Shown: positions 52,014 to 55,373 of the stretch, one piece after another | Layout: each line of letters starts with the position of its first letter | How positions within the stretch are numbered: the first letter of the stretch is position 1 | Source: a bacterium | GTDB lineage: Bacteria > Patescibacteriota > Saccharimonadia > CAILAD01 > GCA-016700035 | Length of the DNA stretch: 64,000 nucleotides | Reading direction: 5' to 3' | NCBI GenBank assembly: GCA_016700035.1 | Contig: CP064998.1 | Coordinates: 662,699 to 726,698, forward strand | Program-made: the position numbers and the translations under genes | Notes under the pieces: generated by a model | What the model was told of the DNA's origin: nothing | Databases searched by the model: none | Seen by the model: the letters and a program-made list of their open reading frames with translations, nothing else

Positions 52014-55000
52014 CTAAAGTTTTTTCAACGGTGCAAAATTTAAATTCAAACGCTTAATCCCCACTCGCTCAAACGAGACCTGCACATCATGATCTTCAAT
52101 GTCTAACACCTTCCCCACCCCAAACATGGCGTGCTCCACTGTGTCACCAATTTCCAGCTCCACTACATGCTCCAGCTCATCTGGAAACGGGTCACTTCGG
52201 TAGCCAGCATCACGATTCTTATCTGAACCAAATCTTGGCAAACCAACCCCCAGTCTATGACCCCCAATAATTAAGCCGGCCTCTGAGTAATCTGGTGGAA
52301 TCTCCATAATAAAGCGCGAGATAGTATTGCGCTGAGTGGAGCCATACAATAAACGCATCGTGGCATGTGTGAGGTATAAACGCTCACGAGCCCTGGTCAT
52401 TCCCACATAGCAAAGTCGTCGCTCTTCCTCTAGCTCGGCCGGTTCAAATAAAGTGCGGGAATGCGGAAGAATTCCCTCCTCCATACCAATCATAAACACC
52501 ACTCGAAACTCCAGCCCTTTGGCGGCATGCAACGTCATAAGAGTAACCGCATCAGTACTCGTCTCCCATCCGTCCAAGTCGGTTACGAGTGAAATTTCCG
52601 ACAAAAACTCCTCCAGTGCCGTAGTGCCAAAGCCACGTGCCACGCCCAGAAATTCCTGCACGTTTTCAATTCGATCACCAGCCGTTAAAGATCCGTCATT
52701 AAGCGCATCTAAATAGCCAGTTTTTTTCAAAATTAACTCAGCTAGCTCAGCTACCGGCAAACGCTCCGAAGACTCCCGAAAATCATGGATGAGAGTAGCA
52801 AACCCCTCGAAAGCTGCTTTGGCTTTTGGTGTTAGGCCTGGAATTTCTCCAGCACTGGCACAAGCCGTGAGGATATCTAGATCGTGCAAAGACGCATAAT
52901 CACTCATTACCGCCAGAGACTTATCCCCCAGCCCCCGAGCTGGCACATTTACAATCCGGCGCCAACTCACGGTGTCCTGTGGGTTAGCCACAAATCGCAT
53001 ATAAGCCAAGGTGTCTTTAATCTCTTTACGCTCATAGAAACGCAGACCACCAACGATTTGATACGGCATATTGTAGCGTAAAAATGATTCTTCCAAACTG
53101 CGTGACTGAGCGTTTGTGCGATACAATACTGCACAATCAGAATACTTATAACCCTGCTCGGCCACCAACTTATCGATCGCCTGAATAACAAACTGCCCTT
53201 CAGCCTGCTCATCCGCAACCTGCTGAATAATAATTTTTTCACCCTGGCCCAGTTGAGTAAAGAGTTGCTTATCGGTACGTACTGTATTTTTAGTAATAAC
53301 CGAATGGGCAGCATCTAATATGTGCTGGGTAGAACGGTAATTCTGTTCCAGCTTGATGACTTTAGCGTTCGGATAGTCTGACTCAAAATTTAATATATTC
53401 TCATAATTTGCGCCCCGCCACGAGTAAATTGAATTATGCACAGCCACCCCATCTACTATATAATTATGCACTTTGCTAATATCCAAGTCGTAAACAAATC
53501 CTTGGTATGATTCACGCTCCACCTTGACAATACGATCGTCAATGAGCTGGCCACGAGCGTTGAGAGTTGGCAAAACCATGTCCTTATATACCTGACCAGC
53601 CAACATAAAGGAAAATTTTTGGGCTGTCAGAAAACCATATTTTGTTACCCGCATAGCTGGGTTCGCAAAACTAAGTAGGGTGGCCTCGAGAGAGCCATAG
53701 TCCAGACTATGTATTTCTGCTCGATGTGTGCCGGCTCTGCCAGACCTTACCCGTAAACCAGCCTGAGTAAGAATCTCTAGAGCAATTTTGCTTGTGGTAT
53801 TCACCGATAGCCGGCTGGCCGACCATGGGCTTATCCGACTAACTCGCTTATCCCCAAAAAGCACCAAATTAACATTTACGCGGCTCTGCTCGCCTCGAGT
53901 TGTAGCCTGTGGTGAAAAATGCGGATAATCATAATCCAATCTAAAATCTGCCATAAGTGACTTAGCCCTCTCGGTTGTGTCAATCTCTTGATACAACGTA
54001 TTGATCTGCTGTTGCGATAGGCTCATCGAGCGATTTGGCAAGGCATGAAAGACCATCATTGGTATGCCGTATTTATAGGCCAGCAAAGACTCTTGCAGTA
54101 TCGCATCAGATCGGTTTTGCGTAACGGCTAAAACCCACATACTATCCGCTCGTTCTTGATTGGCTCGCACCCTCAGGCCGGTATCGTACTTCTTGCCGTC
54201 AAACCGTGTTCCTCGAGCTATACCAATACGAAACCCAAACTGCTGTGCATACATTAAGTACACAAAATACGATTCGGTCATACCCCAGCGAGCAAACAAA
54301 ATATGGTTCGGCGTTATCCGTAGCAGTTTACCCGACTCAGTCATAATCTTGATGAGTTCTCCAGAATATTTAAACCGCTTTCTTTTCTGTACCGAAAAGA
54401 ACTGAGTATTCCCATGCCCACTTGCCGATCGCACCTCGTCCCCTTGCGCCACTTGCTCAATCGCCTTCCAGCCAGTCTTGGTCTCAATCTGACTGCCGGT
54501 CGGAATACATTGCCAGTCATCGCCAACTACGCAAATATTGTTGTGAGCCACTGCTAACATTTGGATAAGACGATATTGGGCATGGTTTGTATCTTGATAC
54601 TCGTCTACTAAAATATAGGCAAACTGCTTCTGGTAGCGCTCCAAAACTTCAGTATTTTCCTCAAACAGTCGCACTGTTTGCATAATAATATCGTCAAAAT
54701 CCATCGCGCCATTCTCACGCAAACGGCGTCGATACTCTGGATAGACTCGCGCAGCTGTCTCCTGCATTCTGCCTTGAGCAAGCTTAGCGTATTCGCCAGG
54801 TAAAATCAGCTCATTCTTAGCCGATGAAATGGCTGAGCGAATGGCCTGCGGAGAAAAGACTTTTTCTTCAATGCCCAGATCTTTACAAACCAGCTTCACC
54901 ACCGCCTGTGCATCGGCCTCATCATAAATAACAAAGCTCTGCGGATAGCCAATCTGCATAGCCTCCCGACGCAATATTCGAACAGCAATCGAGTGGAAAG

Positions 55001-55271
55001 TCCCCAAAAAAGGCAGATAACTCCGGTCATCACTGTCTCGACCCAATAGGCTATTAATCCGTTGACGCATCTCCGTTGCCGCCTTATTGGTAAAAGTAAC
55101 CGCCAAAATATTGGATGGATGTATTTTCTTTTCTTCCACCAAATAAGCTATGCGATGAGTCAGCGTCTTAGTTTTACCAGAACCTGCCCCGGCTAGCATT
55201 AATACCGGGCCATCAACCGTTAAAACCCCTTCGCGCTGGGCCTCATTCAAATCCTGCAAGAGTGCGTGCAT
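52014..55271 (-). CDS. pcrA: ATP-dependent DNA helicase PcrA/UvrD interrupted by an in-frame intein
   Basis: AGAGSGKT Walker A, DEYQDTN motif II, motif III split as VVGDDWQ | intein | SIYSWRGA; start taken at MHALLQDL. Confidence 0.85.
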   Translation of the reverse strand: MHALLQDLNEAQREGVLTVDGPVLMLAGAGSGKTKTLTHRIAYLVEEKKIHPSNILAVTFTNKAATEMRQRINSLLGRDSDDRSYLPFLGTFHSIAVRILRREAMQIGYPQSFVIYDEADAQAVVKLVCKDLGIEEKVFSPQAIRSAISSAKNELILPGEYAKLAQGRMQETAARVYPEYRRRLRENGAMDFDDIIMQTVRLFEENTEVLERYQKQFAYILVDEYQDTNHAQYRLIQMLAVAHNNICVVGDDWQCIPTGSQIETKTGWKAIEQVAQGDEVRSASGHGNTQFFSVQKRKRFKYSGELIKIMTESGKLLRITPNHILFARWGMTESYFVYLMYAQQFGFRIGIARGTRFDGKKYDTGLRVRANQERADSMWVLAVTQNRSDAILQESLLAYKYGIPMMVFHALPNRSMSLSQQQINTLYQEIDTTERAKSLMADFRLDYDYPHFSPQATTRGEQSRVNVNLVLFGDKRVSRISPWSASRLSVNTTSKIALEILTQAGLRVRSGRAGTHRAEIHSLDYGSLEATLLSFANPAMRVTKYGFLTAQKFSFMLAGQVYKDMVLPTLNARGQLIDDRIVKVERESYQGFVYDLDISKVHNYIVDGVAVHNSIYSWRGANYENILNFESDYPNAKVIKLEQNYRSTQHILDAAHSVITKNTVRTDKQLFTQLGQGEKIIIQQVADEQAEGQFVIQAIDKLVAEQGYKYSDCAVLYRTNAQSRSLEESFLRYNMPYQIVGGLRFYERKEIKDTLAYMRFVANPQDTVSWRRIVNVPARGLGDKSLAVMSDYASLHDLDILTACASAGEIPGLTPKAKAAFEGFATLIHDFRESSERLPVAELAELILKKTGYLDALNDGSLTAGDRIENVQEFLGVARGFGTTALEEFLSEISLVTDLDGWETSTDAVTLMTLHAAKGLEFRVVFMIGMEEGILPHSRTLFEPAELEEERRLCYVGMTRARERLYLTHATMRLLYGSTQRNTISRFIMEIPPDYSEAGLIIGGHRLGVGLPRFGSDKNRDAGYRSDPFPDELEHVVELEIGDTVEHAMFGVGKVLDIEDHDVQVSFERVGIKRLNLNFAPLKKL
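53433..54509 (-). mobile_element. intein (about 359 aa) in helicase motif III of PcrA/UvrD; coordinates from residue arithmetic
   Basis: Starts with Cys after VVGDDWQ (block A CIPTGSQIET) and has block B ITPNHILF. Block F is FVYDLDISKVHNYIV and block G is VAVHN followed by +1 Ser. Removing it restores VVGDDWQSIYSWRGA. Confidence 0.8.
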
Positions 55272-55373
55272 AATTACCATTCTACCTGAACAAAGCATAA
55301 GCCGAAAGTCTTACGAAAACCTTTATGCTTAAGGTGTTTTTAGTGCGCAAAAAATGTATACTAAAAAATAAGT

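Follow-up and report, generated by a model that had tools for sequence, protein, structure and literature searches.

Introduction

An intein in a repair or replication helicase is ordinary, and inteins of the UvrD family have figured in catalogues from 2015 at the latest. The survey by Novikova et al. 2016 (PMC4760082) lists 16 bacterial UvrD inteins. A UvrD-like helicase intein is known from Bacillus phage CampHawk (PMC8785237), and the E. coli phage PaulScherrer gene bas60_0082 (MZ501100.1) is annotated as encoding an "intein-containing UvrD/Rep family helicase precursor". These inteins of UvrD/PcrA/Rep helicases share with the one described here the host protein family and class 1 splicing chemistry. 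The accessible parts of PMC4760082, PMC8785237 and MZ501100.1 leave the type of endonuclease in UvrD-family inteins unstated, and the endonuclease type of this ordinary intein allele has probably gone undescribed so far. One review placed PcrA/UvrD inteins at the P-loop (PMC5874633), whereas the present intein lies in motif III.

According to reviews, endonucleases encoded in frame within inteins are of the LAGLIDADG or HNH types, with Vsr-like enzymes found in split inteins. GIY-YIG enzymes were described in introns and as free-standing genes, and not in inteins (PMC1564403). Fractured genes and split inteins may have a free-standing endonuclease ORF between their halves; examples are AceL NrdHF, with a GIY-YIG-type ORF (PMC7891396), and the Vsr-like/EDxHD endonucleases (Dassa 2009; I-Bth0305I, PMC3239194). 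We analyzed an intein carried by the pcrA/uvrD gene of a chromosome from an uncultured Saccharibacteria (Patescibacteria/CPR) bacterium, within a stretch of 64,000 nucleotides (hereafter, the window). In our view it is likely to be a bifunctional class-1 intein of canonical type in PcrA motif III, whose homing-endonuclease module is GIY-YIG-like and neither LAGLIDADG nor HNH.

Host gene, intein boundaries and splicing

The host ORF, taken from the ORF list, encodes 1,094 amino acids including the insert (Table 1). Pfam families UvrD-helicase (5e-86), UvrD_C (2e-73) and PcrA_UvrD_tudor were matched, and TIGR01073 (pcrA) scored 880 bits against a cutoff of 911, with the match broken by the insert into two stretches. 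The host protein is a PcrA/UvrD helicase of superfamily SF1A, with motifs I-VI in order and similarity to PcrA over its full length. Residue numbers in the ORF are counted here from the first ATG (55298); the orthologue at locus L001 begins MHALLQ, which suggests that the real pcrA start is Met10 (ATG at 55269-55271). The original prediction gave no strand, and its residue count began at the same, probably too early, start codon.

Table 1. Features of the intein-containing pcrA/uvrD gene (window positions)
Feature	Position	Strand	Remarks
pcrA/uvrD ORF including the intein	52014..55298	-	Pfam and TIGR01073 matches
N-extein: motifs I and II of the helicase and the N-terminal half of motif III, up to ...VVGDDWQ	54510..55271	-	aligns to 1pjr up to Gln254
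Intein, 359 aa, Cys1...His358-Asn359	53433..54509	-	absent from syntenic orthologue L001
Hint N-lobe, intein aa 1-78	54276..54509	-	block A Cys1 at 54507-54509; block B T66-P-N-H69 at 54303-54314
Sub-domain A, intein aa 79-160: GIY-YIG-like nuclease core	54030..54275	-	order β-β-α-β-α
Two-helix linker, intein aa 161-196	53922..54029	-	conserved Q..ID.LY..IDT..RA..LM and start of YPH motif
Sub-domain B, intein aa 197-300: α/β domain	53610..53921	-	order β-β-α-β-β-α-β; putative DNA-binding module
Hint C-lobe, intein aa 301-359	53433..53609	-	block F VYD341LD..VHNY; block G VAVH358-N359
C-extein: Ser+1 (53430-53432) in SIYSWRGA, second half of motif III; then motifs IV-VI and Tudor domain	52014..53432	-	

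A 359-residue intein at 53433-54509 had been predicted, and its boundaries were upheld exactly by the splicing residues, a Hint-fold model and the alignment break at L001. It comprises ORF residues 264-622 and parts the Gln from the Ser in motif III of this SF1 helicase (Q254 and S255 of PcrA). Across the junctions the ORF reads ...NICVVGDDWQ, then CIPTGSQ...RITPNHILF...VYDLDISKVHNYIVDGVAVHN, then SIYSWRGANYENI. All of the splicing blocks named beforehand could be seen: Cys1 directly follows ...GDDWQ of the N-extein, the TxxH of block B lies within ITPNHILF, and the C-terminal blocks F (YDLD...HNY) and G read VYDLDISKVHNY...VAVHN, with the terminal His-Asn standing before Ser. Pfam Intein_splicing matched intein residues 319-359 above its cutoff, and NCBIfam TIGR01443 (intein C-terminal region) scored 19.9 against a cutoff of 15.6. 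The AF2 model of the intein (pLDDT 88.1, pTM 0.86) showed a Hint fold for both splicing lobes; the C-lobe, with pLDDT 94-98, also matched PI-PkoII and KlbA among PDB sequences. Neither a second intein nor a second copy of the central module was found in the window.

Excision was expected to restore motif III, and the spliced product indeed aligned to the intein-free PcrA structure 1pjr with no gap (E=1e-195, residues 3-725). An empty site was likewise found in a relative, as proposed: orthologue L001, from another Saccharibacteria genome, is syntenic and 91% identical in amino acids, lacks precisely these 1,077 bp, and reads AATATTTGTGTGGTTGGCGATGATTGGCAG directly followed by TCGATTTACTCTTGGCGCGGTGCTAACTAC. 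The DNA alignment to L001 breaks exactly at window 54511->53432. In related Saccharibacteria loci the motif-III site reads VGDDWQSIYSWRG in 80/80, a biased set of empty sites because one scan pattern (DWQSIYSW) crosses the junction. The segment was also considered as a lineage-specific accessory domain of the helicase that is never excised, for which its in-frame position, and nothing else, speaks. Such a domain would have to split an invariant catalytic motif, and close orthologues carry an empty site instead of a conserved subdomain. It would also have to bear the full set of splicing residues, of which Cys1 and the terminal His-Asn occur in 87/87 complete family members, and to be cleanly absent from the 91%-identical L001; we regard this reading as improbable in the extreme. 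The insert is almost certainly a canonical class-1 intein that is competent to splice.

In the proposed mechanism, the precursor would be translated and an N-S acyl shift at Cys1 would be followed by attack of Ser+1, cyclization of Asn359 and an O-N shift, to yield active PcrA and a free 359-residue intein. By its position between Gln and Ser, the insert separates the γ-phosphate-sensing Gln from the Trp/Arg that contact single-stranded DNA, so that the precursor is expected to be inactive until it is spliced, and splicing to be obligatory.

Central module

Between the Hint lobes lies what we take to be the homing-endonuclease module: an N-terminal, divergent GIY-YIG-like core (sub-domain A), joined by two helices to a family-specific α/β domain (sub-domain B) that probably binds DNA. 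In sub-domain A, 46 diverse members share seven invariant residues (Y84, M86, G96, R115, E119, E140 and P150), and R94 is near-invariant. The insert is under purifying selection: in comparison with a conspecific strain (98.1% nucleotide identity), the intein has a dN/dS of 0.17. For sub-domain A the value is about 0.04, with 7 synonymous versus 1 non-synonymous change, and no other part of the intein is as constrained.

The prediction that no obvious LAGLIDADG motif would be visible held: no LAGLIDADG or HNH family of Pfam or NCBIfam, including LAGLIDADG_3 and PF14528/PF00961, was matched at E<=10. The module had been suspected to be either degenerate or of a different endonuclease type; the GIY-YIG-like N-terminal half favors a different type, and a degenerate LAGLIDADG enzyme was not borne out. 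A LAGLIDADG (or HNH) endonuclease too degenerate to be recognized by its sequence has in its favor that LAGLIDADG is by far the commonest type in inteins and that the β-β-α-β-β-α order in sub-domain B recalls a LAGLIDADG half-site. However, Pfam does recognize LAGLIDADG_3 in second inteins of related giant helicases, the alignment contains neither LAGLIDADG helices with their acidic pair nor a His/Cys-rich ββα-metal motif, and four LAGLIDADG-bearing inteins (PI-PkoII, PI-PfuI, PI-SceI and TliVMA) superposed over 134-159 residues that cover only the Hint part of ~135 residues. A LAGLIDADG or HNH core was accordingly rejected as very unlikely.

Another architecture, described for some actinophage inteins (bioRxiv 10.1101/2025.01.02.630785), has the true endonuclease read from a different frame or from the complementary strand of the intein DNA, with the in-frame center as filler. 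The intein does contain an antisense ORF of 81 amino acids (54160..54405, plus strand), but this short frame, with TTG as its start codon and no similarity detected, was judged to be a chance ORF. The in-frame region, by contrast, is predicted to fold confidently (pLDDT about 80-94 in its structured parts), and its protein sequence is conserved over 1,800 clusters, with invariant residues and a low dN/dS. An endonuclease in another frame is hence even harder to credit than a degenerate LAGLIDADG enzyme, and the in-frame module is preferred.

Sub-domain B has near-invariant Pro, His and three Arg residues. It yielded no recurring Pfam family among 34 members scanned, three chance-level matches only in a profile search of PDB sequences, and in a fold search weak matches to α/β sandwiches only (BMC, MotA C-terminal domain, SUI1 and WhiA). 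Rich in conserved Arg, it probably binds DNA.

Relation of sub-domain A to GIY-YIG nucleases

The β-β-α-β-α order of the core agrees with the published GIY-YIG topology (PMC3384342) and is found as well in the homing endonuclease I-TevI (1ln0/1mk0) and in the N-terminal domain of UvrC (1ycz). PF01541 (GIY-YIG) was the only recurring Pfam family for sub-domain A: it was matched by 6/46 members, then by 3/10 further members and by the consensus, in a constant register (roughly residues 1-65 against columns 1-68/70 of the 78 in the profile). T5orf172 was matched twice. The top PF01541 score among relatives was 22.1 bits (E=1.9e-4), under the 22.6-bit gathering cutoff that no member reached, and the window copy gave no GIY-YIG match in Pfam. 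Comparison by hhalign of the sub-domain A profile with single sequences was not significant for UvrC (E=0.18) or I-TevI (E=0.48); against a profile of 39 UvrC GIY-YIG sequences the result was marginal (P about 0.09), in the expected register. A profile search of PDB sequences with sub-domain A found nothing, PHROGs scans of the intein and the 46 members turned up nothing beyond Hint-related or isolated single matches, and Foldseek against BFVD returned true homologues within phage proteins and no informative distant fold.

The positions that match GIY-YIG nucleases are a Tyr on β1, the Gly of the second motif and a Glu on α2, and Arg115 on the first helix is a candidate counterpart of the Arg on α1. 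The GIY motif has its counterpart in V-Y-L, whose Tyr84 is aligned to UvrC Y19, and the YIG motif in [YF]-R-I/V-G, where the Gly is invariant and the Tyr position (UvrC Y29) is taken by Arg94; the spacing of 12 residues from the first Tyr to this Gly is that of UvrC. HH alignments with UvrC pair Y6/Y19, RIG/YIG and E62/E76, and two independent ones place Glu140 opposite UvrC E76. UvrC R39 falls near an earlier G-x-R loop in the HH alignment, not at Arg115 on the first helix. Unlike in I-TevI and UvrC, "RIG" replaces "YIG", Glu119 stands at Arg+4 where His or Tyr is expected, a hairpin of ~10-20 residues is inserted ahead of α1, and the conserved C-terminal Asn has no counterpart, its position falling in an invariant G-I/L-P-T motif. 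Taken together, sub-domain A quite probably is homologous to the GIY-YIG fold. Altered chemistry or inactivity is possible given this non-canonical active site (Tyr to Arg, His/Tyr to Glu, no Asn).

Distribution, derivatives and activity

The module was found in 1,800 cluster representatives, most of which have it at one and the same UvrD-family site (GDxxQ, then C...HN, then S/C). TxxH is present in 81/87 complete members; of these 87, 68 have Ser at +1 and 19 have Cys. The domain pair, in about 1,800 clusters, is modelled by none of Pfam, NCBIfam and PHROGs. The family is spread patchily over bacterial phyla and phages, with many empty sites. It reaches phages in culture, those of the phi92/PaulScherrer group (Justusliebigvirus), and some of the phage copies are already annotated "intein-containing UvrD". 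The PaulScherrer copy has the same motif-III site (VVGDEFQ, then C...SHN, then CIYQFRGS) and the same central module (tblastn E=2e-15; A3 profile 78.7 bits), whereas the window copy, on a Saccharibacteria chromosome, is about 28% identical to phage copies in the central domain. In a large protein search, the A3 profile brought up 4 short fragments only, and the host protein of member P0016 matched nothing in PHROG or Pfam. Two free-standing derivatives (P0090 and P0062) on bacterial or phage-like contigs adjoin a UvrD-like helicase gene; they have lost the splicing residues and kept the nuclease-like ones.

Signs of recent mobility were absent from the window intein: it has the same G+C as the host gene, intein alleles among Saccharibacteria are only 38-60% identical, and the conspecific strain likewise carries the intein. 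These observations would suit a splicing intein with a catalytically dead center, a GIY-YIG derivative or look-alike kept for folding, splicing or DNA binding only, that persists since any imprecise deletion of it within motif III would destroy PcrA. The same reading could draw on the altered active site, the missing Pfam match of the window copy, the ameliorated G+C, the old and divergent saccharibacterial alleles, and at least one variant without sub-domain A (P0014), a deletion expected of decaying endonucleases. Several findings oppose it, namely the tight constraint on sub-domain A, the invariance of seven residues in 46 diverse members, including a Tyr/Arg/Glu triad at the presumed GIY-YIG catalytic positions, and the patchy spread over phyla and phages with many empty sites. 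The retention of nuclease-like residues in free-standing derivatives is hard to explain by a role in splicing alone. A dead center is on balance unlikely, though it deserves more weight than the other alternatives. For the window copy in particular, whether the endonuclease is still active is close to an even question, with the balance tipping slightly toward no.

If it does act as a homing endonuclease, as we prefer, the module would most likely recognize pcrA/uvrD alleles that lack the intein and cut them in the stretch coding for motif III or close to it, through a core in which "VYL...[YF]RIG" stands for GIY...YIG and Tyr84, Arg115, Glu119 and Glu140 are invariant, and the intein would then be copied into the cut allele via recombinational repair.

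Comparison with known systems and implications

The endonuclease region splits the Hint domain at the same topological position as in PI-SceI, PI-PfuI, PI-PkoII and the Mtu RecA intein. Classical LAGLIDADG inteins have Cys1, TxxH and HN followed by Ser/Cys in common with this one, and the homing cycle is presumed to be alike. In contrast to them, its endonuclease region has no LAGLIDADG motifs and consists of a GIY-YIG-like core and an unclassified α/β domain. The layout resembles I-TevI in tethering a small nuclease core to a separate putative DNA-binding domain; the core, however, lies in frame within an intein and is neither intron-encoded nor free-standing, and the putative DNA-binding part is unrelated to NUMOD, zinc-finger and HTH modules. 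Fractured genes and split inteins likewise hold a non-LAGLIDADG endonuclease at the canonical Hint insertion point, but the window intein is contiguous, with the nuclease-like domain in one polypeptide and no separate ORF. Yeast HO parallels the derivatives P0090 and P0062, not the window copy: a Hint-plus-endonuclease protein is kept as an independent gene and the splicing residues are lost. HO is a LAGLIDADG enzyme; P0090 and P0062 differ from it in nuclease type and in their location on bacterial or phage-like contigs beside a helicase gene.

We tentatively suggest, as a possibility that falls short of an even chance, a large and so far undescribed class of contiguous inteins, with an in-frame, divergent GIY-YIG-type nuclease and a new DNA-binding domain, in motif III of UvrD/PcrA/Rep helicases of many phyla and phages, with HO-like, splicing-dead derivatives beside helicase genes. 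An active nuclease would add GIY-YIG to the endonuclease superfamilies that work within inteins, contrary to PMC1564403, and confirmation would support repeated invasion of inteins by free-standing endonucleases. The module would be a compact monomeric scaffold that combines a small nuclease with a new DNA-recognition domain for a highly conserved helicase sequence, and it is open to experiment through its relatives in phi92-like and PaulScherrer-like phages, which are in culture. In this Saccharibacteria bacterium, PcrA activity should hinge on protein splicing.

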